Origin: Candidatus Shapirobacteria bacterium
GTDB lineage: Bacteria; Patescibacteriota; Microgenomatia; UBA12405
DNA: 64,000 bases
Direction: 5' to 3'
Assembly: GCA_022837635.1 (NCBI GenBank)
Contig: JALHFY010000001.1
Location: 96,136-160,135, forward strand
Shown: positions 2,414 through 61,118 of the stretch, piece by piece
Position numbering within the stretch: the first letter of the stretch is position 1
Layout: each line of letters starts with the position of its first letter
Translations under genes and position numbers: made by a program
Notes under the pieces: generated by a model
What the model was told of the DNA's origin: nothing
Database searches by the model: none
Seen by the model: the letters and a program-made list of their open reading frames with translations, nothing else

Positions 2414-3745
2414 TTATCTGGGGATTAATTCTAGAAAGTAGGCGGTGTTGGGGGACAGGTAAATATTTTCAGTGTGAGTTGAGGTAGTGACGGTGATAAT
2501 TTTTTGAGTACTTTTACCTAGATATTGGGTAGTTTTAAGAAGATAGTTTCCAGGAATGAGAGAAGTATAGGTTAGAGGGACGGTTTCACTGTGTCGATTT
2601 TTGGGGTCATAGTTGACTAAAAGAGTTTGAATAATAGTGCCTTTTTTGGCAGAGAGAGAACTTACCCAAGTACCATCACCTTCGTGGGCGACTTGGGTGC
2701 CATTAAGCTGATTCAGGAATTGCAAAGCCTGGTAGCGGGGTTTGATTTGACCGCTGTGTGTCAGGATACCCCAGCCGGTGGATTTGTGAGAGCGAGGAGA
2801 AGGTCCGTCAATAGCTTCAAAAGTAAAGAGACGATGAATTTTTCCATAAAGTTTAGTGGATAGAGAGATTAGATGAATCCCACTAAGAGAATTGTCATAG
2901 GCGGGATCGGGTTCGGAGTTGGGACCAATTTCAGTGATAAGTCTTTCAATATTGAAGTATTGAGGGTAATCGCTGAGAATAGAATTTAGATTTTCAAAAT
3001 CGCGTAAATAATCATCGAGATTAAAAGAATATTTATGCCAGGAGATGAAATCTAGGGGTAAATTGTTGGTGGCGGTGAATTTGAAGAGAGCAGTGATCCA
3101 GTTTGGGTAATAGGCGGTAATGGCGGGGCCACCGATTTTATAAAAGGTGTTACCGGCACCTTTTTTAACGGCTAAAGAGGTATTTTTATATAGAGTGAGA
3201 TAGTTAGGAGACTTGCCATAATGCCAACCACCAAAAAGATCGGGTTCGTTCCAAACTTCGTAATAGATACCGGAGATATTTTTTTCGACTGAGTAATGGC
3301 GAGCGGTGGCTTCGACCAAGCGATTCCATTGATTCCAATCGTTGGGTTCTTTGGAGTCGGGGGTATAGGAAAGAGAAAGCATGGGTTTGGCACCAGTGGC
3401 CAAGATACTGTTTACGGCTTGGTCAAGTCGGGAAAAATCATATTGACCGTTACCTTGGTCAACTTGATAATAATCAAAGAGATGATCAATGCGGATAAGT
3501 TGGAGATCTAAGGCTTTGAGAGGGGAGATAACTGGAGCAATCATATCCTTGGTTTCTTCACCACCTTGAGAAATGTTTTTCCAGAGACTGCCGGTGATGG
3601 TGGTACCTAGAGATTGAGTATGAATGGTGATATTAGCGGGGATACCGGAGGCGGATTTACGAAGATCGAGAATGGTTTTAAGAGAAAACAGGAGAAAAGG
3701 GAGAAGAAGAAGCAGAATTAGGGTTTTAATATTTTTTGATTTCAT
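2414..3745 (-). CDS. Membrane-anchored glycoside hydrolase, clan GH-A (GH39-like)
   Basis: N-terminal signal/TM (KTLILLLLLPFLLFSL). WNEPD acid/base motif (YYEVWNEPDLFGGW) and a downstream ITEIG nucleophile-like motif. Confidence 0.55.
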   Translation of the reverse strand: MKSKNIKTLILLLLLPFLLFSLKTILDLRKSASGIPANITIHTQSLGTTITGSLWKNISQGGEETKDMIAPVISPLKALDLQLIRIDHLFDYYQVDQGNGQYDFSRLDQAVNSILATGAKPMLSLSYTPDSKEPNDWNQWNRLVEATARHYSVEKNISGIYYEVWNEPDLFGGWHYGKSPNYLTLYKNTSLAVKKGAGNTFYKIGGPAITAYYPNWITALFKFTATNNLPLDFISWHKYSFNLDDYLRDFENLNSILSDYPQYFNIERLITEIGPNSEPDPAYDNSLSGIHLISLSTKLYGKIHRLFTFEAIDGPSPRSHKSTGWGILTHSGQIKPRYQALQFLNQLNGTQVAHEGDGTWVSSLSAKKGTIIQTLLVNYDPKNRHSETVPLTYTSLIPGNYLLKTTQYLGKSTQKIITVTTSTHTENIYLSPNTAYFLELIPR

Positions 3746-3842
3746 GAGTCTCCAGAATCAGTATACTATATATGGTATAAGGATTTGACTATTGACCTCG
3801 TTTGATAAACATGTAAAACTGGAAGCAGAAGCAATTGAAAAT

Positions 3843-5165
3843 ATGATAATGAAAAGAAAAGGTTTAGCTCAAATTCCATTGATTTTAGGTCTATTGGTAA
3901 TGGCGGTTGCTATTCCAGTAGCAACAAAATTGGTCCAAGAGAATCAAGATAGTAGAAACCAGGCTGCTGGGTGTGCTGGTATTAATCAGGGTTGTTCTAC
4001 TAGACCATGTTGTGCTGGTTTGACTTGTGCAGACGAAAGTTCAGGTTTTAGTTATCCGAGGTGTATTGGTGCTGGTAGTTGTCCTCAAGGGCATAGAAAA
4101 TGTGAAGGAAATAATCAGTACTATTGTAATGCAGGAAACTGGGTTTTAGAGAAAGCCTGTGGAAGTTTAGGGTGTGATGGTGATGGTTGTCGGGTGCCAG
4201 CATGTTCAGGTACAGAAACAAAATGTAATGATAGTGGTAATCAGGTTTTGCAGTGTAATAACGGTGTGTGGAAGTTGCTGAGTAATTGTTCTTATGGTTG
4301 TAGTAATGGAGCCTGTAAAAACCCCCCACCCACAGCAACTCCGACCAAAAAACCTACGGCAACTCCAGCTCCTTGTGCGAAGTCCGGTCAGGCTTGTTCT
4401 ACTAGGTCTTGCTGTAATGCAACAGATGTGTGTACGAATGAGGGTTTATCGTATCCTAAGTGTGTGCCTAGGGCTGAAATTCCCACTTATATCCCTGTTC
4501 CTACAGAAGTATGTGTTGGTCCTGGTAAGCCTTGTTCGACTCGATCTTGTTGTGCAGGTTTAACTTGTACAGCTGAAGCTTTGGCTTATCCTCAATGTGT
4601 AGAAAATTGTAGTTTGTTGACTAACAGGCCAGATAATTGTAAATGTACTAATAATACTCATTGTAAGAGTAAAAACTGTTCGGGAGGAGTTTGTAAGCCA
4701 TCAGGTAGGGTGTCACAGCCGCCGATATCTGATAAATGTCCTGGAGCACAGGCATGTCCTGACAGTACGGGTAACGTATTGCGTGATTGTAAGAACCCTG
4801 ACTCTGACGGAACTTCCAGAGATAGTATTTGTTCGGCTGCAGGTGGGGTAGAAACTTGTGATGGTAGGAATTTTTGTTGCCCGAATGCTGGTGGAAAATG
4901 GACTACTGATATGACACAATGTCCGACAGCAGCTACGTGTGCTAAATGTGCCGATGCTTCAGCTAAAGGAAAGGGTGATGCTAATTGTAATGGGGTAGTG
5001 GATTTAGTGGATTATTCTATTTGGAGAGAGGAATTCAATATAGCTAAATGTGGTACGGATACGGCTACTAGAAATAATTGGAAGGCTGACTTTGATTGTA
5101 ATGGTCTGGTCAATATGGCTGACTACAATATTTGGAGAAATAATTATATTACTATGTTCAAATAA
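3843..5165 (+). CDS. Secreted Cys-rich protein with triplicated CSTRxCC...YPxC modules, a PT linker and a C-terminal dockerin pair
   Basis: Signal peptide MIMKRKGLAQIPLILGLLVMAVA; start at an internal Met of ORF 3792. Three copies of C-S-T-R-P/S-C-C-x-G/A-x-x-C...YPxC, a PPPTATPTKKPTATPAP linker, and C-terminal Ca-binding dockerin loops DANCNGVVDLVD and DFDCNGLVNMAD. Confidence 0.6.
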   Translation: MIMKRKGLAQIPLILGLLVMAVAIPVATKLVQENQDSRNQAAGCAGINQGCSTRPCCAGLTCADESSGFSYPRCIGAGSCPQGHRKCEGNNQYYCNAGNWVLEKACGSLGCDGDGCRVPACSGTETKCNDSGNQVLQCNNGVWKLLSNCSYGCSNGACKNPPPTATPTKKPTATPAPCAKSGQACSTRSCCNATDVCTNEGLSYPKCVPRAEIPTYIPVPTEVCVGPGKPCSTRSCCAGLTCTAEALAYPQCVENCSLLTNRPDNCKCTNNTHCKSKNCSGGVCKPSGRVSQPPISDKCPGAQACPDSTGNVLRDCKNPDSDGTSRDSICSAAGGVETCDGRNFCCPNAGGKWTTDMTQCPTAATCAKCADASAKGKGDANCNGVVDLVDYSIWREEFNIAKCGTDTATRNNWKADFDCNGLVNMADYNIWRNNYITMFK

Positions 5166-5169
5166 GAGA

Positions 5170-6489
5170 ATGAAGTTAGGCAAAATTTTATTAACATTTT
5201 TATTACTAACAGCTGCTGGTGGAGCTTTGCTTTTAGTCAAACAAAATCAGGATGTTAGAAGAGGGGCAGCGGCTGGGATTTTGAATTTGTCATTATCTCC
5301 GGGAACGCGAGTGACTAAAAAGGTTGGAGAAAAATTAACTTACACTATCAATTATTCTGGGCCTGCTGGTTCTAAAGTGGAAACAGTTCAGAGTAAAGTT
5401 TGTTATGGTCCAGAGATTGTTTTTAAGAGTGCTACTGGTAATACTGCTAATGGGTTTAAGAGTGAAGTGTTGAGTAAAACTTTAGCGGCGAATTCAGCAG
5501 GTTTGACTTGTACTTTTGTAACGGTAGTAGCAGATGATACAGCGACAACTTGTACAACTAAGTTAGCGAATGCGGGGCAGGCAATGACTTTGAATTTTGA
5601 AGCAGTAAGGAAAGGCGGTCCGAGAGCGATAACTTTAGTAGAAGCGGACACCAAAGGGACGATTTATGTTCCAGGGAGTGCAGAAAAGCTTTTGAATGGG
5701 AAAATTGGTGGAAATGGGGAGTATGAAATTATAGATGGAGCTTCAGATTGTAGGCCTCTGTGGGGGATAGTAAATAGCGAGCCAGATGGTGACGGTACGA
5801 CTGAGAGAGAAGTGGAGAAGTATTGTAAGGAGTTTAGTAGTTGCGATAATCAGATTACGATAATTGGTCAAGCTTATGAAACGAAAGAAGAGTGTGAAGC
5901 GGCTCTAAATGGTGATACACCGATATTAAATTATAAAGTGTCTTTTGCCTATGTTAATGCAACAGCCAGTGAGTGCGCTGAGAATTGGCCGGTACAAGTG
6001 ATTGCTTTACATGGAGAAACCAAGAAGGTGTATACAAATGTGATTATGAAAAATAAAAAGATTGTAGGAGATAAAGTGACTTTTGAAGGAAGTCTACCAT
6101 TGGTTGGATTTCCTTACAAGAAAGATGTAGCAGTTTTCTTTAAGGGTCCAAAGCATTTGCAAATGAAATATGCTGTTCAAAATCAGACAACCTCTTATGG
6201 TAAGGCGGGAGGAGAATTAGTTTTGACCAGTGATCCAGCTACAAGTATTCAGTATGATTTTAGTGGCTATCCTATGTTACCTGGCGATTTAGTTGGTAAT
6301 GACTCCGACACTCCTGATGGTTGGATTAATGGCCGTGATTTTTCATATATTAAGAACCATGCTGATCATACTACGGTTAAGCACGGTGAGTACTTGCATA
6401 CTGATTTGAATGGTGATTGTCAGGCTAATTCGGGAGATGTTAATGCCTTAAAGAAGTCTCTTGAATTTAAGCAAGATCAACTTTATTAA
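5170..6489 (+). CDS. Secreted protein with C-terminal dockerin-like repeats
   Basis: Signal peptide MKLGKILLTFLLLTAAGGALLLV; the ORF-track start 5050 overlaps the previous gene, so internal ATG 5170 is used. C-terminal DLNGDCQANSGD matches the dockerin D-x-N-x-D-x-x-x-N-x-x-D loop. Confidence 0.5.
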   Translation: MKLGKILLTFLLLTAAGGALLLVKQNQDVRRGAAAGILNLSLSPGTRVTKKVGEKLTYTINYSGPAGSKVETVQSKVCYGPEIVFKSATGNTANGFKSEVLSKTLAANSAGLTCTFVTVVADDTATTCTTKLANAGQAMTLNFEAVRKGGPRAITLVEADTKGTIYVPGSAEKLLNGKIGGNGEYEIIDGASDCRPLWGIVNSEPDGDGTTEREVEKYCKEFSSCDNQITIIGQAYETKEECEAALNGDTPILNYKVSFAYVNATASECAENWPVQVIALHGETKKVYTNVIMKNKKIVGDKVTFEGSLPLVGFPYKKDVAVFFKGPKHLQMKYAVQNQTTSYGKAGGELVLTSDPATSIQYDFSGYPMLPGDLVGNDSDTPDGWINGRDFSYIKNHADHTTVKHGEYLHTDLNGDCQANSGDVNALKKSLEFKQDQLY

Positions 6490-7034
6490 TGAAACAAAAT
6501 ATGAAAAATAAACTTTTTTGGCCAATGGTTGTTTTATCATTAGTTGTTTTGGTGGAAAGCGTGCTTTTCTTGTCGAAGACTAATAATAAAACAGAGAATA
6601 ATGTAGAACAAGTTTCTCCGACGGTAACAGTTAGTGAAACAGATTCGATTGTAGCAAAGGATAAGATAATAAATTTTTCTTGGCTTCAAAAAAGTAATAA
6701 TAAAATGACTTTGGTGTTGCAGAGTAGTGAAGATGTAGCGGTGGATGCTATTGATTTAGAGATGGCTTATGAAGGTGTCAAGGTTTTATCAGTGGTTAAT
6801 GCTGGTGTTTTACCTGAACCTTCAAAACCTATTATATCCCGCGATAAATCATTGATAGTGACTCATTATTTGATAGACGCGATGGGGGGTTTTAAGTTGA
6901 ATAAAAACGAGAAATATGAGTTGTTAGATATAAATTATTCTTTGATTGAAAGAAGTGAAGCGAAGTTTACTTTAGAAGAAAAGACTTTGGTGGTTGAAAG
7001 CGTTACTTCTAAAGTGTTACCTTATTCTATATGA
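6489..7034 (+). CDS. Small secreted cohesin-like domain protein
   Basis: N-terminal TM/signal segment. VDAIDLEMAYEGVKVLSVVNAGVL resembles the cohesin signature (fdlsYD.svLevvsv.aG). Confidence 0.4.
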   Translation: MKQNMKNKLFWPMVVLSLVVLVESVLFLSKTNNKTENNVEQVSPTVTVSETDSIVAKDKIINFSWLQKSNNKMTLVLQSSEDVAVDAIDLEMAYEGVKVLSVVNAGVLPEPSKPIISRDKSLIVTHYLIDAMGGFKLNKNEKYELLDINYSLIERSEAKFTLEEKTLVVESVTSKVLPYSI

Positions 7035-7696
7035 AAAGAGTAGTTCTCTTATTTTTGCTTGTTTTTTTGGTATCTGCCAGGGGTGTGGGTGCTGCTGGAC
7101 CGATGCTTAAGTTCGTGCCAACAAACACTACTTATGTGCCAGGACAGAATTTTGATGTAGTTTTGGGGGTGGATTCAGGTACTGAAAGGACGGCAGCGGT
7201 AGATGCTTGGGTGACTTTTGATCCGGCTCAGGCAGAAATTGTGTCAATAAGGGCAGCGACTAATCCAGCTTTTCCTTTTACAATAATGCAGAATGTTTAC
7301 AATGATACTGGTAAGTTTAATATTAGTTTTAATTCGACTGACAGCAGTAGCTTTGAAATGAAACCGTCAGTGGGTGACTTAGCGGTAATTACTGTTAAGC
7401 CTAAATCTAACGGAACTATAAATTTGAACTTTGTTTGTACTGATGGTTCACAAGTAGATTCAAATATTTTTAATTTTGATGGTAAAGAAGTGTTAGCTTG
7501 TTCTTTGAATCAAAATGGAGTTTATACGACTACAGGAGCTGCTCCGGTGGCAACAGCTGCTCCGACTTCTGCATCGGGAACAACAGTTCCGACTTCGACT
7601 GAGTTGCCGAAGACTGGAGCGGTGGAGAATACAATTGTGTTGATGGTCATGGGGATGATTGGAGTGTTATCTTCGCTAGCTTTGAGGAAATTATGA
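7031..7696 (+). CDS. Cohesin-domain surface protein with LPKTG sortase sorting signal
   Basis: Signal peptide. Cohesin-like core (AVDAWVTFDPAQAEIVSIRAATNP). C-terminal LPKTG, then a hydrophobic stretch (AVENTIVLMVMGMIGVLSSLAL) and an RKL tail: a canonical cell-wall sorting signal. Confidence 0.65.
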   Translation: MKRVVLLFLLVFLVSARGVGAAGPMLKFVPTNTTYVPGQNFDVVLGVDSGTERTAAVDAWVTFDPAQAEIVSIRAATNPAFPFTIMQNVYNDTGKFNISFNSTDSSSFEMKPSVGDLAVITVKPKSNGTINLNFVCTDGSQVDSNIFNFDGKEVLACSLNQNGVYTTTGAAPVATAAPTSASGTTVPTSTELPKTGAVENTIVLMVMGMIGVLSSLALRKL

Positions 7697-8364
7697 CCAA
7701 GAAACCGAATGTAAAAACGATTATTATTATCGTCATTATGCTTTTAGTGGGAGTTTTAGGAGTGTTGGGGATGACTACTGCCAAAACTTTTTTTAGTGGA
7801 GCATCGGCGGCGACTGAGCCTAAAAATGTATTGGCTAAGGCTAATGAGGATGGTAAGAGCGCGGTGGTTACTTGGGTGTCTGATAAAGCTAGTATGGGAA
7901 CTGTAGAATATGGAACGACTCCGGCGAGTCTACTTTTAAGAGCACCGGAAAGTGAATCTGTGACTAACCACTCAGTAACTTTAAGTTCACTTAAGGCTAA
8001 TACTAATTATTATTTCAGAATTAAGATAGGGGAAGAGGTTTTTGACAATAACGGAATTCCTTATTCTTTTAAGACTAAAGGGGCAACTCCTTCGGGAACA
8101 GTATTGCCAGTGATAACAGTAACACCGACGATGGTGGCTTCGACTGAAGCTAAACCAACTGTAGTCAGTGGGGTTTGTGATCGGACGACTGATTATAATA
8201 AAGACGGAGTGGTTAATAGCCTGGATTATTTGACCTGTCAAAGGGATCAGGGCGGAAAAGCAATTACACCAGTGCCAACAGGGAAATGTTCATCTCCTGG
8301 GGATTTGAATAATGATGGAGTAGTCAATAGTCTGGATGTACGCAAGTGTTTACAAAGTCAGTAA
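7693..8364 (+). CDS. Secreted FN3-like domain protein with two C-terminal dockerin repeats
   Basis: N-terminal TM/signal. FN3/PAP-like segment (TWVSDKASMGTVEYGTTP...NTNYYFRIK). Two near-perfect dockerin loops, DYNKDGVVNSLD and DLNNDGVVNSLD. Confidence 0.6.
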   Translation: MTKKPNVKTIIIIVIMLLVGVLGVLGMTTAKTFFSGASAATEPKNVLAKANEDGKSAVVTWVSDKASMGTVEYGTTPASLLLRAPESESVTNHSVTLSSLKANTNYYFRIKIGEEVFDNNGIPYSFKTKGATPSGTVLPVITVTPTMVASTEAKPTVVSGVCDRTTDYNKDGVVNSLDYLTCQRDQGGKAITPVPTGKCSSPGDLNNDGVVNSLDVRKCLQSQ

Positions 8365-45002: not shown

Positions 45003-46133
45003 TTAGACATTACTTAGGCAATAATAAGCACCCTTGGTGGAGCCACGTTTTTGGACGACTTTATCATCAATCAGTTTTTTGAGGTCACGCCAAATAGTGT
45101 CATCACTGACCATGGGTAAAAGGGATTTGGCGTCGGGCATGCGGAGACCACCGAATTGTTGCATGTATTCGACTAATTTAATTTGTCTTTCACTAAGATG
45201 AATTTGTTTACCACCTAGTTTTTGTTTGAATTTAAGGTCCCGAGAGAGGGTTTGAACTTTGTCTTTGACCCGAGACAATTCAATGGCTAGGACTTCGGTG
45301 TAATAGGTTACCCAATCAGTAAGGTCGCGTTCAAAGATATCGCTGTCTTTTTCGTGGGTTGATTGAAGAGTGTTGTAATAGGTTTCAGCGTTACGATCAA
45401 AATATTCCTCAATAGAGAAAAGACGGCGAATGTCATAACCTTCAACATAAAGAGGTAAAATACCGAAAGCTCGGGAAACACGGCCATTACCTTCGACAAA
45501 AGGGTGGATGGCGACTAAAATGTATTGGGTAATAGCGGCACGGATAGCGGGATGAATCTCTCTGGATTTGGGCTCGTTGAGCCAGGCAACAAAGTCAGAC
45601 ATTAAATATGGGACTTCAATGGCTGGAGGTGGTCGATGAGCAATTTCTCCGGTTTGGGTATTTTTTAAGACGACTTGTTGGCGACGATATTTACCAATAT
45701 CGGCTTCGTCGATGATTTTGGTAGTAGTTAGTTCGTGGATTTTTTTAATAATGCTTTCGCTATAAAAAAAAGGTCGGTTTTTAGGATCGACTCCCTCTTT
45801 ATATTTTTCCTCAGGTAAGGGTAAACCAGCATCAAAGGTGGCCCAGATTTCTTCAAGGTAATTAATAACATTGCGGTAGTTGATGACTTCCTGAATATCC
45901 CGATCGGCAGCGGTAACTTGGCGGCCTTCGACCAATTTGGCCACGTCTTGGTAAGTTAGGTCATTACCTTCGATACGAGTACCATAGTGAACAGTCCGGA
46001 TGACAGCTTCCTGTTGAAATTGTTTTTCATAGGCAGGAATTAAGGGAGCCTCATCGATAACCGCTTTAGCGGCTTCGAGAGTACCGATGTTTTTTAGAAT
46101 CTGGTTATTAATGGTAAATATCGGAGAAAACAT
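45003..46133 (-). CDS. Fic/DOC-family protein with C-terminal wHTH
   Basis: Canonical Fic motif HPFVEGNGRVSRAF. TRIEGN segment near the N-terminus resembles the auto-inhibitory (S/T)xxxE(G/N) helix. Confidence 0.8.
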   Translation of the reverse strand: MFSPIFTINNQILKNIGTLEAAKAVIDEAPLIPAYEKQFQQEAVIRTVHYGTRIEGNDLTYQDVAKLVEGRQVTAADRDIQEVINYRNVINYLEEIWATFDAGLPLPEEKYKEGVDPKNRPFFYSESIIKKIHELTTTKIIDEADIGKYRRQQVVLKNTQTGEIAHRPPPAIEVPYLMSDFVAWLNEPKSREIHPAIRAAITQYILVAIHPFVEGNGRVSRAFGILPLYVEGYDIRRLFSIEEYFDRNAETYYNTLQSTHEKDSDIFERDLTDWVTYYTEVLAIELSRVKDKVQTLSRDLKFKQKLGGKQIHLSERQIKLVEYMQQFGGLRMPDAKSLLPMVSDDTIWRDLKKLIDDKVVQKRGSTKGAYYCLSNV

Positions 46134-47328: not shown

Positions 47329-49068
47329 ATGCCTGCCGAATTAAAAAATTATAAAAAACTGTCAGAACTCCTTTTAGATAAGGGGGTGATTACCAAGGCT
47401 CAGGCTGAAGAAATCAGCTTGAAGATGGTCAAGAGTGGTGAAAGTGAAGAGGCGATTATTCGGTCAATGAGATTATTTCCGGAAGAAGATTTCCTGAGAT
47501 ATAAGGCAGAATTCTTAAAAATTCCCTTTGTAGATTTGGATGAGGTTGGTTTTTCACCGGAGGCTTTGTCATTAGTGGCCCAGAGTGTGGCGGAAAAGTA
47601 TCATTTGGTCCCCTATCGCATGGATCCCAAGAACAAAATTCTTGAAGTGGCGATGGCTAATCCTCTGGATTTGGAGACAATCGAATTTTTGGAAAAGAAG
47701 ACTGGTCTGCGGATTAAAGCAGTGATGGCGTTGGAGTCAAAAATTGACGCTTTTATCCAAGAAAAATATGAGAGAGAAAAAGGAATTACCTCCGAGGTGA
47801 GCAAGGCTTTGGATGAAAGAAAGGCTGATGAGGCTAAGATTGAAGAGGAAAGCGCTAAAGCGGTTACAACAGAAGCTCCAATTGCCAAAATTGTGAATAC
47901 GATTTTGGCATACGCAGTTCGTTCTCGGGCTTCTGATGTACATATTGAACCGTTAGAAGAAAATGTTAGAGTTAGATATAGAATTGATGGTATTTTACAG
48001 GAAAAATATGTGTTACCTCGAAATGTGCTGGAGGCGGTGGTTTCCCGGATTAAGATTTTAGCTAACTTAAAAATTGATGAAAAAAGAATCCCTCAAGATG
48101 GACGTTTTAATATCAATGTTGATGGTAATGAAGTGGATTTGCGGGTATCAACTTTACCTGTGTCTTATGGTGAAAAGGTGGTAATGCGCTTACTGCGGAA
48201 ATCTTCAAAGGTGCCGTCTTTACCTGATTTAGGCTTAAGAGGTTTAGCTTTGAAGAATTTGATTGAGTCAATTGAGAGACCACACGGAATTATTATTGTT
48301 TGTGGACCAACAGGTTCAGGTAAAACCACGACCCTCTATTCAATTTTAGACAAGGTGGCGACACCAAAAGTCAATGTAGTTACGATTGAAGATCCGGTGG
48401 AGTATCAAATGAAGGGAGTTAATCAGGTTCAAGTGAATGTCCAAGCAGGTTTAACTTTTGCCTCGGCTTTGAGGTCATTTTTACGGCAGGATCCAAATAT
48501 CATGATGGTAGGAGAAATTCGGGATACAGAAACGGCGGAGCTAGCAATTAATGCGGCTTTAACTGGGCATTTAGTGTTTTCAACTTTACACACCAATGAT
48601 GCAGCGGGAGCACCACCGCGGATGTTGGATATGGGGGTGGAGCCATTTTTGTTAATTTCAGCTTTGACTTGCGTGGTGGCTCAGCGGGTACTGAGGAGAC
48701 TATGCACTGAATGTCGTCAATTTGTAGAAATTGATCCAGGAACATTGAGTGAGCTCAAAGAAACTTTGGGACCGATTTATGGGATGCTTGAAGAGAAGGC
48801 TAAAAAAGAAGGTAAGGTGTTAAAACTGCCTAAGGCAGTAGGGTGTCCAAAATGTAATAATACCGGTTATATGGGGAGAATTGCTATTTATGAAGTAATG
48901 CCGATTACAGAAAAAATTAGTAAAATGATAGTAGAGCATGCGGCGGCATCGGCGATTCAAAAACAGGCAATTGAAGAAGGGATGTTGACCATGAAACAAG
49001 ATGGTTACGTTAAAGTTTTAGAAGGAATTACTACCGTAGATGAAGTGCTACGGGTAGCACAATATTAA
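47329..49068 (+). CDS. pilB: Type IV pilus assembly ATPase PilB (GspE family)
   Basis: GspE N-terminal domain, Walker A GPTGSGKTTTLYS, Asp/His boxes, tetracysteine (CTECRQ...CPKCNNTG). Confidence 0.9.
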   Translation: MPAELKNYKKLSELLLDKGVITKAQAEEISLKMVKSGESEEAIIRSMRLFPEEDFLRYKAEFLKIPFVDLDEVGFSPEALSLVAQSVAEKYHLVPYRMDPKNKILEVAMANPLDLETIEFLEKKTGLRIKAVMALESKIDAFIQEKYEREKGITSEVSKALDERKADEAKIEEESAKAVTTEAPIAKIVNTILAYAVRSRASDVHIEPLEENVRVRYRIDGILQEKYVLPRNVLEAVVSRIKILANLKIDEKRIPQDGRFNINVDGNEVDLRVSTLPVSYGEKVVMRLLRKSSKVPSLPDLGLRGLALKNLIESIERPHGIIIVCGPTGSGKTTTLYSILDKVATPKVNVVTIEDPVEYQMKGVNQVQVNVQAGLTFASALRSFLRQDPNIMMVGEIRDTETAELAINAALTGHLVFSTLHTNDAAGAPPRMLDMGVEPFLLISALTCVVAQRVLRRLCTECRQFVEIDPGTLSELKETLGPIYGMLEEKAKKEGKVLKLPKAVGCPKCNNTGYMGRIAIYEVMPITEKISKMIVEHAAASAIQKQAIEEGMLTMKQDGYVKVLEGITTVDEVLRVAQY

Positions 49069-50133
49069 ATGCATTCAAAAACAGAAGAAATTTGTAAATT
49101 AGCGATTGCTAATGGGGCTTCAGACATTCATTTACAAATGGGTCAAGTACCCAAGATGAGAGTCCATGGTTCACTTATTGATATTGGTACCTTTGGAGTT
49201 ATTGATGATCCGGAGTTAATTTTATCCTTGCTTTCGGAAAAACAAAGAGAAGAATTTATAGTAGAAAAGGAAATGGATTTGTCAGTAACTTTAGATGATT
49301 ACCGCTTTCGGGCTAATGTTTTTCACCAAAAAGGTCAATTAGCCTCTGCCCTGAGAGTGATTGTTGATCAGATTCCGGAACTTGGTAGTTTAGGATTACC
49401 AGAAGTGGTTAAAAGTTTTACCAAGTTAAGACAAGGTTTTGTTTTAGTTACTGGTCCGACAGGTCAAGGAAAATCGACTACTGTGGCTTCAATCTTGAAT
49501 GAAATTAACAAGGAAAACTCGGTAAGTATTGTAACAATTGAGGATCCGATTGAGTATGTGATTAGACCAATTAAATCCTTGGTTTCACAACGTGAATTAG
49601 GGGAAGATACTTTGAGTTTTGATAGGGCCTTAAAATCTTCATTAAGACAGGATCCGAATGTGGTTTTTGTGGGGGAAATGCGAGATTTAGAAACGATACA
49701 GTTGGCTTTGACAGTGGCGGAAACCGGACATTTGGTCTTTTCGACTTTACATACTAATTCAGCAGCTCAGTCGATTGATAGAATTATTGACGTTTTTCCT
49801 GAAGGGAGTAAACCCCAAATTAGAATGCAGTTAGCATCGGTATTGTCGGCAGTAGTGTCACAGCGGTTGATACCGACCACTGATGGTCAGCGAACAGTGG
49901 CAGCTGAAATATTGATAACTAATCCGGCTTTGGCTAACACTATCCGAGAAGGAAAAACTTTTATGATTGATAATATTATTCAAACTGGGGCCGATCAGGG
50001 AATGGTGGGGTTGGAAATGTCACTGGCGAGATTGGTTAAGAGTGGTAAAGTTGAAGAGCGTTTGGCGGCAAGTTTTGCCTTGAGACCGGAAGAATTTCTT
50101 AATAGTTTAAGACTTCTAAAGAAAAATGGCTAA
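49069..50133 (+). CDS. pilT: Type IV pilus retraction ATPase PilT
   Basis: Walker A GPTGQGKSTT. PilT-type core without an N-terminal GspE domain. Confidence 0.85.
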   Translation: MHSKTEEICKLAIANGASDIHLQMGQVPKMRVHGSLIDIGTFGVIDDPELILSLLSEKQREEFIVEKEMDLSVTLDDYRFRANVFHQKGQLASALRVIVDQIPELGSLGLPEVVKSFTKLRQGFVLVTGPTGQGKSTTVASILNEINKENSVSIVTIEDPIEYVIRPIKSLVSQRELGEDTLSFDRALKSSLRQDPNVVFVGEMRDLETIQLALTVAETGHLVFSTLHTNSAAQSIDRIIDVFPEGSKPQIRMQLASVLSAVVSQRLIPTTDGQRTVAAEILITNPALANTIREGKTFMIDNIIQTGADQGMVGLEMSLARLVKSGKVEERLAASFALRPEEFLNSLRLLKKNG

Positions 50134-51340
50134 ATTTATTTATAAAGCCAGGGATTGGAGTGGAAAATTAGTCAAAGGTGAGTTGGATTTACCGAGTCAA
50201 AAAGAAGTAGTGGAGTCAATTAAAGATAGTGGCTTGATTCCTTTGTCAGTGAAAGCCAAATCTGGAGGAATGTTTTCGGAATTAACCAAGGCGCTTAAAG
50301 GTAGAGTTAACTTAAAACAAGTCAGTACTTTTACTCGTCAATTATCAACGATGTTGACGGCCGGATTGGCACTGACGGATGCTTTGGCACTGTTAAAAAA
50401 TCAATATGATGAAGGTAGCGGTTTAGGACAAATTGTAGGTAAGGCTTTGGATGAGGTTCGAGGAGGGATGCCTTTGGGAAAATCACTTTCAGGATCTCAA
50501 AAAGTTTTTGGAGAGGCATATATCGCCTCGATTTCAGCTGGAGAAGAGGCGGGAGTATTGGATGAGGTGATGAGTAAATTGGCTGATACGACGGAGAATC
50601 AAAGTGAGTTTCAGGGTAAGGTCAAAGGAGCGATGATTTATCCGATTATCGTGATTGTGGCCATGATAGTTGTGGCTTTTGTAATGATGATTTTTGTGAT
50701 TCCGAAAATGACGGCTATGTATGCGGATTTTGGAACGGCCCAAATGCCCAAAATTACTCAGGCTTTGATGAGTATTTCCAGTTTTGTGTCTAAGGTGTGG
50801 TTTATGTTTCCTTTAATGGGAGTGATTTTGTTCATGGTTTATAGAGTGGCTATGAAAAGTCAGGATTTTCATATGCGTCGGGATAGATATATTTTGAAAA
50901 TTCCGATTATCGGGGTATTAAACGAAAAATCGGTTTTGGCCAATACTACTAGGACTTTGTCTATGTTGTTAACGGCAGGAATTACTTTAGTGGAGGCCTT
51001 AAAGATTGTAGCGACAGTTTCGGGAAATAAAGTTTATGAAAAAGCTTTTTTGGAAATTGCGGAAAAGGTGCAAAAAGGTTTTTCAGTGGCGGTATCTTTT
51101 GAAAATACCGGTATTTTTCCACCGATTGTTAATCAAATGATTTCGACTGGTGAGGCGACAGGAAAACTGGATGAGGTATTAATGAAAGTTTCAGATTACT
51201 TTACCAAAGAGGCGGAAGAAGCGGTGAAAGCTTTGACGGCGGCGATAGAGCCGTTGATTATGGTAATTTTAGGTATTGGAGTGGGTTTTTTGGTAGTAGC
51301 GGTGATCATGCCTATTTATACCTTGACATCTTCCGTCTAA
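50126..51340 (+). CDS. pilC: Type IV pilus platform protein PilC (GspF family)
   Basis: Two GspF repeats with three TM segments. Confidence 0.85.
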   Translation: MAKFIYKARDWSGKLVKGELDLPSQKEVVESIKDSGLIPLSVKAKSGGMFSELTKALKGRVNLKQVSTFTRQLSTMLTAGLALTDALALLKNQYDEGSGLGQIVGKALDEVRGGMPLGKSLSGSQKVFGEAYIASISAGEEAGVLDEVMSKLADTTENQSEFQGKVKGAMIYPIIVIVAMIVVAFVMMIFVIPKMTAMYADFGTAQMPKITQALMSISSFVSKVWFMFPLMGVILFMVYRVAMKSQDFHMRRDRYILKIPIIGVLNEKSVLANTTRTLSMLLTAGITLVEALKIVATVSGNKVYEKAFLEIAEKVQKGFSVAVSFENTGIFPPIVNQMISTGEATGKLDEVLMKVSDYFTKEAEEAVKALTAAIEPLIMVILGIGVGFLVVAVIMPIYTLTSSV

Positions 51341-51385
51341 AAATGCCACAATGGTATCAAGTTAGTTAAAAATTTCTTAAAAAGA

Positions 51386-52018
51386 ATGACAATGAGAAAA
51401 GCTTTTACATTGGTGGAACTATTGATAGTTATCACCTTGATTGCCATATTGTCGGTCGCAGTGTTGGCAACTTTGAATCCTATTGAACAGACCAATAAGG
51501 CTCGCGATGCTCAGTTTAAGAATGATGCGGCGGAAGTCTTGAGTGCTCATGAACGTTACTTTGCCTCCCAGAACGCTTATGCTTGGAATTCTGGCACTGG
51601 TCAAACTGTTGCTGTAGGAGTTGCTGCAGTAATGCCTGGAAATGTTCCTATGTTTGGAGTAGTAGGTAGCAATTGGGATGGTAATGGGGTCGGGTCTACA
51701 GATTCGCCTTTAATCCAGACATCAGAAATTAAAACCTCTTTTCTGAATAAGGCTCCTTTTAGAGAGGAACCTAAACCAATTGATATGTTTTATGCTTATA
51801 CTGATGGAGCGGACACTAATTATGTCTGTTTCTTTCCTAAAGCTAAGGCTAACAGAACTGGAGAGCAAGGAGCCAAGTTAAAATGTATGGATCCGGTTGA
51901 TACTGCAGATGCTCAAATATATTCACAAGGAGTGGGTTGTACATTAGCCACTTCTTGGACAAATGCTGATTTGACACCTCAAAGTGGGATAGCTAATTTG
52001 ATGTGTGTACCGGAATAA
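51386..52018 (+). CDS. Type IV (pseudo)pilin, likely major pilin
   Basis: Class III signal MTMRKA|FTLVELLIVITLIAILSVAV with Glu at +5. First pilin gene, followed by a strong terminator. Confidence 0.75.
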   Translation: MTMRKAFTLVELLIVITLIAILSVAVLATLNPIEQTNKARDAQFKNDAAEVLSAHERYFASQNAYAWNSGTGQTVAVGVAAVMPGNVPMFGVVGSNWDGNGVGSTDSPLIQTSEIKTSFLNKAPFREEPKPIDMFYAYTDGADTNYVCFFPKAKANRTGEQGAKLKCMDPVDTADAQIYSQGVGCTLATSWTNADLTPQSGIANLMCVPE

Positions 52019-52040
52019 GGTACTAAATCCACCCCTTAAT

Positions 52041-52075
52041 CCCCTCCTTTGAGTAAAGGAGGGGAGTTTTTTTTG
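52041..52075 (+). terminator. Intrinsic terminator: CCCCTCCTTT-GAGT-AAAGGAGGGG followed by T8
   Basis: Perfect 10-bp GC-rich stem plus a U-tract, read directly, just downstream of the major pilin. Same element as 44921-44954. Confidence 0.75.
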
Positions 52076-52086
52076 TACAATAGGCT

Positions 52087-52839
52087 ATGAATTTAGTTTG
52101 CTTTCTTTTGGGATTGGCGGTGGGGAGTTTTGTCAATATGGCAATATGGCGGGTGGAGCATAGGCAGTCGATTCTTAAAAAACAGCGAAGTTTTTGTGAT
52201 TTTTGTAAAAAGCCACTGAGATTTTATGACAACATTCCCCTACTCTCTTTTTTAGTATATAGAGGAAAAAGCCGATGTTGTGGTAAAAAATTGCCAGGAT
52301 ATTATCCGGTGGTGGAAATGTTGATGGGAATATTGTTTGCTTTAAAATCACCCCCTAGCCCCCTCTTTGAGGAAAGAGGGGGAATTGTGCTCTTAGTTTT
52401 ATGGAGTATATGGGTTTTGTTGGTTTTTGAGGCGGTGTTTGATGTCAAAAAAATGATGATTCCGGATGCGACGGCCATACCTTTAATGGTGTTGGCTGAA
52501 TTAAGGAGAAGATTGTTAGGTTTGCCGGTAAGTGAATGGTGGAGTGCTTTGGGAGCAGGTCTGTTTATCTGGTTATTAACTAAAATTAAAATTAAGGGGA
52601 AGCAAGCAATGGGCGAGGGTGATGCTTTGTTGGCGGTATTTATGGGACTATTTTTGAGTTTTCCTAAAATTATAGTGGCTTTTTATGTGGCTTTTATCAG
52701 CGGGGCGGTGATTGGTTTGATATTAATAGCGAAGAAAAAAAAGAAGCAACTCTCCCCTATTCCCTTTGGCCCCTTTTTAATTTTTGGAACAATAATTGCC
52801 TATTTTTGGGGAGAAAAAATTATTAGTTTATTTTTTTGA
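52087..52839 (+). CDS. pilD: Prepilin peptidase PilD (A24 family)
   Basis: N-terminal Zn-binding CxxC pairs (CDFCKK...CCGKK), polytopic membrane protein with the conserved Asp-containing loop. Contains an in-frame GC-rich repeat insertion (SPPSPLFEERGG). Confidence 0.85.
   Translation: MNLVCFLLGLAVGSFVNMAIWRVEHRQSILKKQRSFCDFCKKPLRFYDNIPLLSFLVYRGKSRCCGKKLPGYYPVVEMLMGILFALKSPPSPLFEERGGIVLLVLWSIWVLLVFEAVFDVKKMMIPDATAIPLMVLAELRRRLLGLPVSEWWSALGAGLFIWLLTKIKIKGKQAMGEGDALLAVFMGLFLSFPKIIVAFYVAFISGAVIGLILIAKKKKKQLSPIPFGPFLIFGTIIAYFWGEKIISLFF
52349..52383 (+). repeat. GC-rich palindromic element (ACCCCCTAGCC-CCCTCTTT-GAGG-AAAGAGGGGG) inside pilD coding sequence
   Basis: Same architecture as the intergenic elements at 44921 and 52031. 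Perfect 10-bp stem, read directly. Confidence 0.7.
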
Positions 52840-52860
52840 GAAAAGGTTACAATAGTTTAT

Positions 52861-53406
52861 ATGAAAAAACAGAAAGCAATAAGTTTAGTGGAGATAATAA
52901 TCGTGATAGCGATTTTGATGATTTTACTGGTAATTGCTTTGGGGATATTTAAGCCAGCGGCAATGGTTAATCGGGCTCAAGATGCCGAAAGAAAGGCAGA
53001 TTTGGATAGAATTAAAATTGCTTTTGAGGATTATTACAACGACAAAGGATGTTATCCAAATTACAACGAATATTTACATAAAATGTTTGATGAAGCTTAT
53101 TGTGATAAGGATTTTTTTAAGCCTTGGATGAACAAGTGGCCTTGTGATCCTGACGGTAAGCCCTATCCGATAATTGTGGGGGTTGGAAGTGAGACTGAAA
53201 TTTGTCCAAAGTTTTTTAAGATTATGGCTAAGTTGGAAAATAAAGGTGATCCTCATCTTTATAATCAAGGACCGATAGAGGAGGAGTTTGCCAACGTCGC
53301 CAACTACTCAGTTTCCAGTCCTAATTATCCAAATATTCCACCAACGATAATTGTGGATGCGACCAGTACTCCAATGTTGACCGATATCAGAACTCAAGGG
53401 GGCTAA
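52861..53406 (+). CDS. Type IV pilin-like protein (minor pilin 1)
   Basis: MKKQKA|ISLVEIIIVIAILMILLV class III signal with Glu at +5. Confidence 0.65.
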   Translation: MKKQKAISLVEIIIVIAILMILLVIALGIFKPAAMVNRAQDAERKADLDRIKIAFEDYYNDKGCYPNYNEYLHKMFDEAYCDKDFFKPWMNKWPCDPDGKPYPIIVGVGSETEICPKFFKIMAKLENKGDPHLYNQGPIEEEFANVANYSVSSPNYPNIPPTIIVDATSTPMLTDIRTQGG

Positions 53407-53408
53407 GT

Positions 53409-53930
53409 ATGATATCTTTAATTATGAAGAGAGCTTTCACTTTGGTAGAACTGTTAGTAGTGATAGCAATTATGGGAATTTTGACGACGATTGCGGTTGG
53501 ACAATTTCAGACTGCTAAAAGAAAGGCCAATGATGTGGCTCGTAAAGGTGATTTGGATGCTGTTTCCAAAGCTTTGCAACTTTATTATGCGGATTATAAG
53601 AGGTTTCCGGAGGCGACCAGTGATGGAAGAATGGTGATTGGGACGGGGACAACTGTGGAATGGGGTGATGAGTTTGTGGATGAGGGTTATATTTATATGA
53701 AAAAAATGCCTCAAGAGAATGTGGTGAGTTCCCCTCAGTATTGTTATAAGAGCAGTGCTGACGGTAAAAATTATGCTCTTTTTGCTAAATTGGAAAATAA
53801 AGAAGATAAGCAGTGTAAATTAGATGAAAATAAAAAAATGACCTATGATTGTGGAGGGATAACTGATAATTATTGTTTTGTTTATCTCAGTCCCAACGTG
53901 GAGGTAGATAGTGATGGAAATTTTATCTAA
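53409..53930 (+). CDS. Type IV pilin-like protein (minor pilin 2)
   Basis: ...MKRA|FTLVELLVVIAIMGILTTIAV. Alternative start at 53424. Confidence 0.7.
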   Translation: MISLIMKRAFTLVELLVVIAIMGILTTIAVGQFQTAKRKANDVARKGDLDAVSKALQLYYADYKRFPEATSDGRMVIGTGTTVEWGDEFVDEGYIYMKKMPQENVVSSPQYCYKSSADGKNYALFAKLENKEDKQCKLDENKKMTYDCGGITDNYCFVYLSPNVEVDSDGNFI

Positions 53931-53931
53931 T

Positions 53932-54324
53932 ATGAAAAAAGCTTTTACTTTAATTGAATTATTGGTAGTGATTTCGATTATTGGTGTTTTGACGGCGATA
54001 GTGGTGCCTAATTTTATGGGAGCCAGAGAAAGGGCTAGTGATAGCCAGAGAAAACAAGATATGGTGTCGATTAAAAATGCTTTGAGGACTTACTATAATG
54101 ACAATCAAAGATATCCGAGTATGGCCACTTGGACAGATGATATAGAAGACTATATTCCTTCAATTAAGGATTTTAGTGATTACAGTTATGTTTTAGTCAA
54201 TAGCGATGCTTTTACCTTGGGAGCGGAAATGGAGGCGACACGAGAACAGGAAATTAAGGATAGTCAAGACAGGTGTGGAATTACTGATGATAATGATACA
54301 AAATATTATGTATGTGCTAATTAA
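53932..54324 (+). CDS. Type IV pilin-like protein (minor pilin 3)
   Basis: MKKA|FTLIELLVVISIIGVLTAIVV. Start chosen after the upstream stop at 53930. Confidence 0.7.
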   Translation: MKKAFTLIELLVVISIIGVLTAIVVPNFMGARERASDSQRKQDMVSIKNALRTYYNDNQRYPSMATWTDDIEDYIPSIKDFSDYSYVLVNSDAFTLGAEMEATREQEIKDSQDRCGITDDNDTKYYVCAN

Positions 54325-54362
54325 AAATTAAAGCAATAAGTAAAATTACAAAATATAAATTT

Positions 54363-54770
54363 ATGAAGAAAGCGTTTACCCTTTTTGAACTATTGGTAGT
54401 GATTTCAATTATTGGGATTTTGATTGCGGTGGCGTCAATATCTTATAGTGGGGCTCAAAAAAAGTCTCGGGATGCTAGAAGGATTCAGGATATGAATGCG
54501 ATCCAGAAAGCAGCGGAGATGTATTACAGTCAGAACAATTATCTTTATCCAGGTAGCAGTCAATTGATTAGTTCAGGTTTGATGTCGGTGATGCCGACAG
54601 ATCCAAAGAATGCTTCTCCTTATGTTTATAGTTTTTCAGGGTTGACGAATGGGGCTAGTAATTATTGTCTTTGTGCCCTGTTGGAAAATGCTACAGGAGG
54701 TAATGCCAGTGATGGTAATTGCACTATGGCAAGTTCTGGTACTTATTATTGTGTTAGAAATCAACAATGA
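54363..54770 (+). CDS. Type IV pilin-like protein (minor pilin 4)
   Basis: MKKA|FTLFELLVVISIIGILIAVA. Confidence 0.7.
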   Translation: MKKAFTLFELLVVISIIGILIAVASISYSGAQKKSRDARRIQDMNAIQKAAEMYYSQNNYLYPGSSQLISSGLMSVMPTDPKNASPYVYSFSGLTNGASNYCLCALLENATGGNASDGNCTMASSGTYYCVRNQQ

Positions 54771-55138
54771 GAAAGGCTTTTACTTTGATCGAATTAATTG
54801 TGGTGATTACTATCATTGCGGTTTTAAGTGTAGTGGGAATGGTGAGTTTTTCAGGGATAAATATGAAATCTCGGGATGCTAGAAGGATTCAGGATTTACA
54901 AAAAATTGCGGCGGCTTTGGAGATATTTCGACAAGCTGATATTAGCAAGAGTTACCCAACAACAACAGCATCATTGGTACCTAATTATTTACAGGTTATG
55001 CCCACTGATCCCAAGACTAAAGCAAATTATCCTTATAATCGGGTGAATCCATATCGATATACTCTGACGGCAACTTTGGAAGATGCTCGAAATAATCCTA
55101 ACCAAGCTAGTACGACTTATACGCTAAATAGTCCTTGA
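54767..55138 (+). CDS. Type IV pilin-like protein (minor pilin 5)
   Basis: MRKA|FTLIELIVVITIIAVLSVV. ATGA overlap with the previous gene. Confidence 0.7.
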   Translation: MRKAFTLIELIVVITIIAVLSVVGMVSFSGINMKSRDARRIQDLQKIAAALEIFRQADISKSYPTTTASLVPNYLQVMPTDPKTKANYPYNRVNPYRYTLTATLEDARNNPNQASTTYTLNSP

Positions 55139-55158
55139 TTTGTGCTAAAGTTTTTATA

Positions 55159-55656
55159 GTGAAACGAGCTTTTACTTTAATTGAATTATTGGTAGCAGTA
55201 GGCATTATTTTGGTGTTGTCGGCGGGAGCTTTTGTCTATATAAATCAAGGTTTACAGAGGCAAAAATTGCTCAGGGCGGCAGGAGAAGTAATGTCAGGAT
55301 TCAGATTAGCTAATTCATTGGCAAAAACTAGACAAATGCCTCAAGGTAGCAGTGGTAATTTGGTGGTGGTGGAGAGTTATTTTAATAATAATAGATTGTA
55401 TGTAAATGCAATTTCATCGGTGGGGACAACAATTAATTTTTCTGAAGAGGTGGTAGAAATACCGATAAATAATAGTAACAGGTGGTTTTTTTATGCGGGA
55501 ACTGGATTTTTAGGGAAAAATGCGACTGGAACAATGTATGGTGCCGGGGAAACAGCCACCATTACCTTGAGTTTAAGTGAAAATTATAATATGTCGATTC
55601 CGATTTTTATTGACGCCATGGGTCAGGTGAGCCAAGGGGAGGTAGTGCAAAACTAA
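55159..55656 (+). CDS. Type IV pilin-like protein (minor pilin 6); start uncertain (GTG 55159 or TTG 55135)
   Basis: VKRA|FTLIELLVAVGIILVLSAGA. Confidence 0.6.
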   Translation: MKRAFTLIELLVAVGIILVLSAGAFVYINQGLQRQKLLRAAGEVMSGFRLANSLAKTRQMPQGSSGNLVVVESYFNNNRLYVNAISSVGTTINFSEEVVEIPINNSNRWFFYAGTGFLGKNATGTMYGAGETATITLSLSENYNMSIPIFIDAMGQVSQGEVVQN

Positions 55657-56060
55657 TGAAAAAAGGTCAAGCTTTAATTGAATCAGTGGTGGCAGTGGGA
55701 GTTTTGGCTTTGGTGATGACGGCGGCAATTGCTTTGATAGTGATGTCAACTGCCAATAGAAGGAGCAATTTTGACAGGAGAAAGGCCAATGAATTGGCTA
55801 ATAAAGTAGTAGAGACTTTTGTTAATGAGAGTCAGAATAATGTGGTTGTTTTTTGGAATAATTTGAGTGGAGGTGATTGCGGGGAATCCGCTTTTACTGG
55901 ATATACTTGTAACTATAATTTTACTATATTGACTCAACCGGCTCATGCTAATTGTGGCAATGGCTCACCACCCAGATGTGTTGAATTGACAGTAACAGTC
56001 AGCTGGCCCGGAAAAACACCGCAAAATTTAATTGTTAAGCGTTTTTTTAGTCAAGGATGA
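55656..56060 (+). CDS. Type IV pilin-like protein (minor pilin 7, Gly at -1)
   Basis: MKKG|QALIESVVAVGVLALVMTAAIALI with Glu at +5. Confidence 0.65.
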   Translation: MKKGQALIESVVAVGVLALVMTAAIALIVMSTANRRSNFDRRKANELANKVVETFVNESQNNVVVFWNNLSGGDCGESAFTGYTCNYNFTILTQPAHANCGNGSPPRCVELTVTVSWPGKTPQNLIVKRFFSQG

Positions 56061-56557: not shown

Positions 56558-56603
56558 AAAAGTGTTATAATATCTTGTACGTACATTATAGGTTATACCT
56601 AAA

Positions 56604-57779: not shown

Positions 57780-57826
57780 TATAGTTCCTTTACTTAAGAC
57801 ATCTTTGTCTTGTATAATCTTTAAGT

Positions 57827-58342: not shown

Positions 58343-58344
58343 TT

Positions 58345-61091: not shown

Positions 61092-61118
61092 TTAAAAGAA
61101 AACACCTATACTGGATAT

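Follow-up and report, generated by a model that had tools for sequence, protein, structure and literature searches.

A candidate self-contained, non-enzymatic cohesin-dockerin assembly on the cell envelope of Candidatus Shapirobacteria

The closest described system to the locus presented here is the sca cluster of Ruminococcus flavefaciens (scaC-scaA-scaB-cttA-scaE), in which genes for cohesin and dockerin proteins are likewise clustered. In this system, ScaE carries a single cohesin, is attached to the cell through an LPXTG motif and sortase, and binds the XDoc of ScaB and that of the non-enzymatic carbohydrate-binding module (CBM) protein CttA (PMC5301203, PMC11557425). A second point of comparison is CipA of C. 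thermocellum, which holds nine cohesins and a CBM3, is anchored via SLH-domain proteins and not by sortase, and ends in a CohI9-X-DocII fragment that plugs into an anchoring scaffoldin. Cohesin-dockerin systems that bind pairwise are also found in Clostridium perfringens and Archaeoglobus fulgidus. Here, we describe a cassette of five genes (B to F) on a 64,000-nucleotide (nt) stretch of a Candidatus Shapirobacteria chromosome (contig JALHFY010000001.1, positions 96,136 to 160,135; this whole stretch is called the window below). The organism belongs to the Microgenomates within the candidate phyla radiation (CPR), and the cassette probably encodes a self-contained, non-enzymatic cohesin-dockerin assembly on its envelope.

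Cohesin-fold modules are found in C, D and E and dockerins in B, C and F, three of each in the cassette. The five genes are consecutive and tightly packed on the forward strand between 3849 and 8364, and each product begins with an N-terminal hydrophobic segment. A sequence-only reading of the same DNA had described five consecutive secreted proteins, and the sequence features listed in that reading were all located again at the positions given there. Start and stop codons overlap by 1-4 nt at the C/D, D/E and E/F junctions, which indicates that these genes are translationally coupled and that B to F form one predicted operon, co-transcribed as a unit. A scan for promoters and terminators gave sites that were no more numerous than in shuffled sequence. 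In the six-frame translation of all 64 kb, the dockerin-loop pattern matched in B, C and F only, and a C-terminal LPxTG followed by a hydrophobic tail was found in E only. Confined in this way, the two patterns are not background noise. The genes, together with the divergent neighbour A, are as follows.

Gene A, 2414-3745, reverse strand: membrane-anchored glycoside hydrolase of family GH39, 443 residues
Gene B, 3849-5165 (longest open reading frame, ORF, 3792-5165), forward strand: leader, Cys-rich modules and C-terminal dockerin
Gene C, 5170-6489, forward strand: 439 residues, with leader, cohesin, variable linker, X-like beta domain and dockerin
Gene D, 6489-7034, forward strand: 181 residues, with N-terminal membrane helix, linker and predicted cohesin-fold domain
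Gene E, 7031-7696, forward strand: 221 residues, with signal peptide, cohesin, linker and LPKTG sorting signal
Gene F, 7693-8364, forward strand: 223 residues, with membrane helix, FN3-like domain, Pro/Thr linker and atypical dockerin

The modules within these genes were located by profile searches and structure models at the following positions.

E: signal peptide 7031-7093, cohesin 7094-7540, Thr/Pro/Ala linker and LPKTG sorting signal 7604-7693, forward strand (Pfam, NCBIfam)
C cohesin, 5260-5745 (residues 31-192), forward strand: aligned with the E family by hhalign
C X-like beta domain, 5920-6309 (residues 251-380), forward strand: directly 5' of the dockerin, in the place of the CipA X module (Foldseek)
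C dockerin, 6304-6486, forward strand: degenerate loop SDTPDGWINGRD at 6304-6339 and loop DLNGDCQANSGD at 6403-6438
D cohesin-fold domain, 6663-7031 (residues 59-181), forward strand: predicted from the structure model
B dockerin, 4974-5165, forward strand: loops DANCNGVVDLVD at 4977-5012 and DFDCNGLVNMAD at 5088-5123
F FN3-like domain, 7816-8082, forward strand: Pfam Pur_ac_phosph_N at 40 bits, above cutoff
F dockerin, forward strand: Cys-bracketed segments 8176-8238 and 8287-8349, with loops at 8191-8226 and 8302-8337 (Pfam)

The E protein matched the Pfam family Cohesin PF00963 at 34.4 bits (cutoff 24.1), Gram_pos_anchor at 21.3 bits (cutoff 20) and the NCBIfam model LPXTG_anchor at 18.7 bits (cutoff 15.9). 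Its signal peptide is cleavable-looking (VGA/AGP), and its C-terminus consists of LPKTG, the segment AVENTIVLMVMGMIGVLSSLAL (22 hydrophobic residues) and RKL. The sortase signal noted in the sequence-only reading is thus supported by both anchor models, and it is kept in 32 homologues of 33-60% identity, in which L192, P193 and G196 are invariant and T195 nearly so. Most of 53 E homologues carry a precomputed PF00963 match, and an identical E protein is present on 18-19 public contigs. Additionally, the E profile retrieved 5,911 relatives at E <= 1e-3 from 1.84 billion representative proteins. Among the top 144 of these, 121 are shorter than 300 residues, and 86 of the 121 end in LPx[TS]G. Signal peptide, cohesin and LPXTG together make up a large and selected architecture that is common in metagenomes. 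Three relatives of the E cohesin, P0156 (2276 residues), P0201 (916 residues) and P0270 (1023 residues), contain 6-9 cohesin stretches each, and both P0156, with 9 stretches, and P0201 have a dockerin-like C-terminus. The sequence neighbourhood of the E cohesin thus also includes genuine multi-cohesin scaffoldins.

A gene for a class A penicillin-binding protein (PBP1) was observed just downstream of the window, and according to Meheust et al. 2019 (PMC6744442) the sortase family is found in nearly all Microgenomates. Because of this near-ubiquity, the nearby penicillin-binding protein and the conserved sorting signal of E, a sortase is presumably encoded in the host genome.

For C, the 439-residue start agrees with that in the public gene calls. 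Its cohesin has no direct Pfam PF00963 match; the relation was detected when residues 31-192 of the C-family profile were aligned with the E-family cohesin (hhalign Prob 95%, E 3.7e-8). The X domain gave no Pfam match and no sequence match in the PDB, and its strands are predicted at a confidence (predicted local distance difference test, pLDDT) of ~90. The AlphaFold2 model of the whole protein (pLDDT 85) contains helices at residues 388-397 and 421-438, one after each dockerin loop. In a Foldseek search with this model, the top matches were the CipA CohI9-X-DocII fragments 3kcp_A and 4fl4_C (E 3e-11, ~408 aligned columns), which indicates that C is laid out as cohesin, X module and dockerin, like the terminus of a scaffoldin. 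The fold searches with the C model compare the whole chain and list no query ranges, and the X domain is placed by its position within the chain. As modelled, C is an adaptor mini-scaffoldin with a Coh-X-Doc layout. The sequence-only reading had counted two cohesins. The cores in D and E held up, but the count did not: the N-terminal cohesin of C had been overlooked, and with it and the X module the set becomes a hierarchical scaffold. Linkers differ widely among the C orthologues: that of L011 holds a PKD domain, and those of L007, L010 and P0103 hold CxRCS repeats.

In the case of D, no Pfam match was obtained, the D-family profile matched no PDB sequence, and hhalign found no significant similarity between the D and E families (Prob 1.6%). 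Since no cohesin relation is detectable at the sequence level, the assignment rests on the predicted fold. The model, built from a 6-sequence alignment, reaches a pLDDT of ~90 over residues 60-181, and a cohesin beta-sandwich is predicted for both D and C, as the sequence-only reading had anticipated of its cohesin proteins. D is therefore described here as carrying a predicted cohesin-fold domain. Both D and F begin with N-terminal hydrophobic helices that show no obvious cleavage site. Within the membrane helix of D (6513-6578, residues 9-30), a glutamate (E23) is invariant in 13/13 orthologues, which is unusual for a simple signal anchor.

The beta-sandwich proteins could also be read as pilins, and the locus as one for a sortase-assembled pilus or fibre of the Gram-positive type, and the LPXTG signal of E speaks for this. 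When the D and C models were compared with known folds, however, cohesins outscored pilins by 4-6 Z units. In addition, only 1 of the 5 proteins carries LPXTG, no pilus-type sortase was found in or near the operon, and dockerins are not components of pili. The pilus reading was rejected on the single LPXTG protein and the higher cohesin scores, and we consider it very improbable.

The dockerins were examined with family profiles built from the C-terminal 60-80 residues in alignments of B, C and F orthologues. The best PDB matches of the B profile were the solved dockerins 8x39_A, 4fl4_A and 2y3n_B (E 8e-5 to 2e-4). The C profile matched the Xyn10B dockerin 2ccl_B first (E 8e-8) and over 15 further dockerins after it, and the F profile matched the dockerin 4fl4_A first (E 8e-6), with EF-hand proteins further down. 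Both loops of B are canonical, with D/N at positions 1, 3, 5, 9 and 12. In C this holds for the second loop, and S and T occupy positions 1 and 3 of the first. The loops of F are both canonical and Cys-bracketed (C-x4-DxNxDGVVNSLD-x3-C), with ~4 residues from loop to Cys. Solved dockerins were thus retrieved first for all three families (E 8e-5, 8e-8 and 8e-6). The sequence-only reading had called them C-terminal type-I dockerins; the dockerin part stands, and the assignment to type I was not established. It had also proposed Pfam searches as a check, and these are significant for Cohesin in E and for Dockerin_1 PF00404 in F (31.9 bits, cutoff 22.9).

The B protein is the putative cargo. Public gene calls place its start at TTG 3792 (457 residues). 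The N-termini of B orthologues, however, read MKRK.LAQIPL and all begin at the Met equivalent to ATG 3849 (438 residues), which makes ATG 3849 the probable start and the deposited N-terminus probably 19 residues too long. Upstream of its dockerin, B is a chain of Cys-rich modules, three of which show the spacing C-x6-C-x4-CC-x4-C-x11-C, which we take to be typical of inhibitor cystine knots. An 8-Cys module (CPGAQAC...TDMTQC) occurs once in B of the window and in five or six copies in the related locus L015. Against the PDB, the Cys-rich part gave only a non-significant match to tachystatin A, a chitin-binding knottin (E 0.09).

A leader common to B (3849-3970) and C (5170-5275) was also observed. 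It consists of basic residues, a hydrophobic stretch and then (L)V(K/Q)xNQ(D/E)xR(R/N/K)xA, with TKLVQENQDSRNQAAG in B and LLVKQNQDVRRGAAAG in C as examples and the motif forms QNQDSR (B) and QNQDVRR (C). Within the window the motif is present in B and C only. It occupies the same position in orthologues from L007, L010, L013, L015 and L016, and it is also found on cohesin-containing proteins of the wider family (P0147, P0165, P0217 and P0235). No NCBIfam or Pfam model matches this leader, and it may therefore be a lineage-specific export or processing signal.

The cassette is conserved in its surroundings. The order RseP, GH39 (reverse strand), B, C, D, E, F, S21, YqeY is kept in 10 GTDB species representative genomes, and the cassette itself recurs in another 16 loci from metagenomes. 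The nearest relative, L015 (Shapirobacteria UBA1420), aligns with the window by blastn at 86-95% nt identity up to ~4320 and again from ~7590, whereas between 4320 and 7590 the identity is <= ~70% or no alignment is obtained. The extent of this block and the identities to L015 are given below.

Hypervariable, putatively exchanged block, 4320-7590, no strand assigned: runs from distal B, dockerin included, through the whole of C and D and the E cohesin as far as the sorting signal
Flanks, identity to L015: RseP 95%, GH39 94%, S21 97%, YqeY 94%
F and the end of E, identity to L015: F FN3 86%, F dockerin 84%, E sorting signal 79%
B and C modules, identity to L015: B dockerin 48%, C cohesin 33%, C X domain 58%, C dockerin 56%
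Cohesins of D and E, identity to L015: D cohesin 38%, E cohesin 42%

The loci L007 and L008 are more distant, with flanks 68-88% identical to the window, yet inside the block they are closer to the window than L015 is: the E cohesin is 66-68% identical, the C dockerin 81-86% and the C X domain 72-74%. This incongruence between flanks and block points to a block exchanged between lineages and not merely fast-evolving. The breakpoints lie within B and just 5' of the LPKTG of E; as a result, the B and C dockerins and the three cohesins stay together.

To assign partners, module distance matrices from 13-21 non-redundant loci were compared by Mantel tests and by partial tests that controlled for YqeY. 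The strongest pairing was that of the C dockerin with the E cohesin (r 0.77, partial r 0.73, p 0.0002). The C dockerin reaches lower correlations with the X module of the same protein (0.67) and with the cohesin of D (0.59), even though on the DNA it is separated from E by D. The B dockerin co-varies with the C cohesin (partial r 0.41, p 0.001) and shows values of ~0 with the cohesins of D and E. The variation of the F dockerin matches the species background (r 0.83 with YqeY), and a small residual correlation with the D cohesin was observed (partial r 0.32, p 0.006). Furthermore, two natural fusions were found. In L014:1-1104 (MNZO01000008, Ca. Shapirobacteria CG2_30_35_20), an ORF that runs off the contig end joins B-type Cys modules to the X-Doc of C, and both the B dockerin and the C cohesin are missing from it. 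The second fusion, P0128, is a C-type cohesin protein into which two B-type 8-Cys modules have been inserted. Both fusions agree with, and suggest, docking of B on C. On these data, we would give docking of C on E an even chance and docking of B on C slightly less than that, and docking of F on D is doubtful.

These results also bear on a reading in which the folds are real but the modules do not bind one another. The cohesin sandwiches would then be stalks or other binders, the dockerin loops Ca2+-stabilised termini, and their co-transcription incidental. Non-cellulosomal cohesins and dockerins that have no known partners are widespread, D has no detectable sequence relation to cohesins, and the F dockerin is atypical, with EF-hand proteins lower among its matches. 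This reading leaves several observations without an account: the match in number between cohesins and dockerins within a compact operon that is kept in ~25 loci, the co-variation of the C dockerin and E cohesin beyond the species background, the exchange of the B and C dockerins with all three cohesins as one block, and the natural fusions that bypass one putative plug-socket pair. We therefore regard the absence of mutual binding as improbable.

If the modules do bind as a self-contained assembly, the following order can be proposed. The base would be E, joined to peptidoglycan by a sortase. The X-dockerin of C would plug into the E cohesin in a Ca2+-dependent manner, and the B dockerin would plug into the C cohesin, giving the order wall, E, C, B. 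The disulfide-rich modules of B would thereby be held off the wall as an adhesin for the surface of a host cell or particle, possibly a glycan. Membrane-tethered D would offer a second socket, for which the dockerin of F, also membrane-tethered, would be the most likely partner, in a membrane-proximal pair. The block containing the B dockerin, C, D and the E cohesin would swap between lineages as a unit, so that cognate plug-socket pairs are kept together while the displayed surface changes. A wider reading would make the cassette a host- or substrate-specificity device of Microgenomates episymbionts, a three-tier stalk in which block recombination re-targets the cell to a new partner surface with the assembly intact; as it stands, this extension seems rather unlikely.

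Several points weigh against this self-contained assembly. Every cohesin-dockerin pairing in it is inferred from sequence co-variation and fusions; the taxa in the Mantel tests are few and related, and the B dockerin and C cohesin are adjacent on the DNA, so linkage or shared recombination confounds their correlation. In Pfam, Dockerin_1 reaches 20.4 bits in C and 18.2 bits in B, both under the cutoff of 22.9. The two loops of F are split by a Pro/Thr spacer of 18-30 residues among orthologues, the F orthologue of L014 lacks the first loop, and this atypical domain may not fold as a dockerin. Additionally, no ORF with a TLxTC-type sortase motif was found in the 64-kb window or in the 23 loci scanned, and gene tables covering 10 kb beyond either end of the window list no sortase. 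The topology of B, C, D and F is uncertain, as their leaders may or may not be cleaved, and a binding function of B would follow solely from its Cys pattern and the non-significant tachystatin match.

The neighbouring gene A brings in the possibility of a true cellulosome-like scaffold, in which the C, D and E cohesins would recruit dockerin-tagged glycoside hydrolases encoded elsewhere for glycan degradation together with the GH39. Gene A matched Pfam Glyco_hydro_39 (85 bits, E 7e-24) and GH39 beta-xylosidases in the PDB (E 1e-20). It has an N-terminal membrane helix and the motifs WNEPD (3239-3256) and ITEIG (2924-2938), and it is apparently catalytically intact. The sequence-only reading, which had placed a membrane-anchored GH39-like enzyme upstream on the opposite strand, was borne out here. 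The gene is divergent from the cassette and syntenic in L007, L013 and L015. Such a conserved, apparently intact enzyme speaks for a cellulosome, as do the multi-cohesin relatives of E (P0156, with 9 cohesin stretches and a dockerin, for example) and an architecture that mirrors the R. flavefaciens sca cluster. In contrast, Pfam found no dockerin on the GH39 and no catalytic domain on B, C or F, the three dockerin proteins. No further dockerin loop is present within 64 kb, each cohesin protein has one cohesin, and the counts match at 3 cohesins and 3 dockerins. Small CPR genomes also fit poorly with this reading. Within the window, the locus, although assembled from the same kinds of module, thus differs from a cellulosome in its single cohesins and non-catalytic dockerin proteins, and no CBM was detected there by Pfam. 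We consider a true cellulosome unlikely. The earlier preference for an adhesion or foraging complex fits these data, as the dockerin proteins carry no catalytic domain and the GH39 no dockerin.

Around the cassette, core housekeeping genes were observed, including EF-Ts, RRF, RseP, S21, YqeY, YbeY, DnaX, RecR, GyrAB, LigA and DnaB. Pfam searches of ten other large ORFs in the window identified GyrA, GyrB, LigA, HisRS, DnaB, an MFS transporter and a Fic protein, and nothing related to the cassette among the ten. The Fic/DOC family protein (45003-46133, reverse strand, 66.7 bits) lies amid the housekeeping genes. The source names of the homologues are Candidatus Shapirobacteria, Woesebacteria and Microgenomates group only, and two clusters with member taxon names are both Shapirobacteria; the CPR-like organism proposed from the sequence was thus identified correctly.

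A large type IV pilus cluster occupies 47329-63471, with a prepilin peptidase, six N_methyl pseudopilin genes and PilM (Pfam). Three ORFs at its 5' end (579, 354 and 404 residues) are PilB/PilT/PilC candidates by size and position alone, and the unannotated proteins of the cluster include two, of 662 (58345-60333) and 391 residues (56604-57779), that gave no Pfam match. Type IV pili have been implicated in host attachment in Saccharibacteria. Most genes of the window lie on the forward strand, and GC skew is strongly positive almost throughout 1-64000 (+0.1 to +0.5 per 2-kb window). A disparity in nucleotide composition between the two strands, described as unusual, is mentioned in the title of a paper about a complete genome from the Microgenomates (PMC7143001).

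Beyond a few cultured Saccharibacteria, little is known of how CPR (Patescibacteria) cells attach to hosts or particles, and this locus is a compact, conserved and tractable candidate. Its six small modules lend themselves to expression and pairwise tests in vitro, for which no culture of the organism is needed. The locus would represent cohesin-dockerin logic without enzymes, in a minimal hierarchy of one socket per protein, and a natural case in which co-adapted plug-socket pairs are transferred jointly by block recombination. Since Pfam misses two of the three cohesins, such systems are under-counted in CPR genomes. The locus may thus be useful for studies of CPR surface biology and of cohesin-dockerin evolution.

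On cohesins and dockerins in CPR, the literature searches returned passing mentions only, and no cohesin-dockerin cassette is described in the library searched. This agrees with the earlier statement that the arrangement is uncharacterised in such organisms; automatic labels of the kind "cohesin/dockerin domain-containing protein", however, already exist on Shapirobacteria entries. The one related mention found for Patescibacteria concerns the Saccharibacterium Southlakia epibionticum, in which SEML1_0315 is an essential dockerin-annotated envelope protein, for which the authors speculate on host-glycan targeting (PMC10633639). It provides a dockerin envelope protein in another Patescibacteria lineage, comparable to the present proteins by its annotation, and that study describes no cohesin partner or cassette. 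The module families themselves are well known and their wide non-cellulosomal spread is documented; each functional step proposed here is inferred. The parts are familiar and the arrangement is new: minimal, non-enzymatic, hierarchical and exchangeable, and in an unexpected lineage.

The non-cellulosomal pairs of Clostridium perfringens (toxin and glycoside hydrolase complexes) and Archaeoglobus fulgidus likewise operate outside plant cell wall degradation. Their modules are found on enzymes or isolated proteins, and no dedicated, sortase-anchored operon with three sockets and three plugs is known among them. The C. thermocellum CipA fragment CohI9-X-DocII (3kcp, 4fl4) is the best whole-chain match of C and has the same module order. 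TM-scores are low (0.25-0.38) because the domain orientations differ, and the X domain of C, although placed like the CipA X module, has no detectable sequence relatives. The sca cluster offers the nearest correspondence: E would take the part of ScaE and C that of the X-Doc scaffoldin, and the ScaE cohesin 2zf9_A is among the structural matches of the C and D models. Unlike in the sca cluster, one cohesin is present per scaffoldin, no dockerin-bearing enzymes or CBMs were found, and the cargo consists of Cys-rich knottin-like modules. A cohesin (D) and an FN3-dockerin protein (F), both membrane-anchored, are present in addition, and the host is a CPR bacterium and not a Firmicute, with ~10-15% sequence identity to the Ruminococcus modules. 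Finally, and again in contrast to the sca cluster, the putatively interacting modules of this cassette appear to be exchanged as a block.

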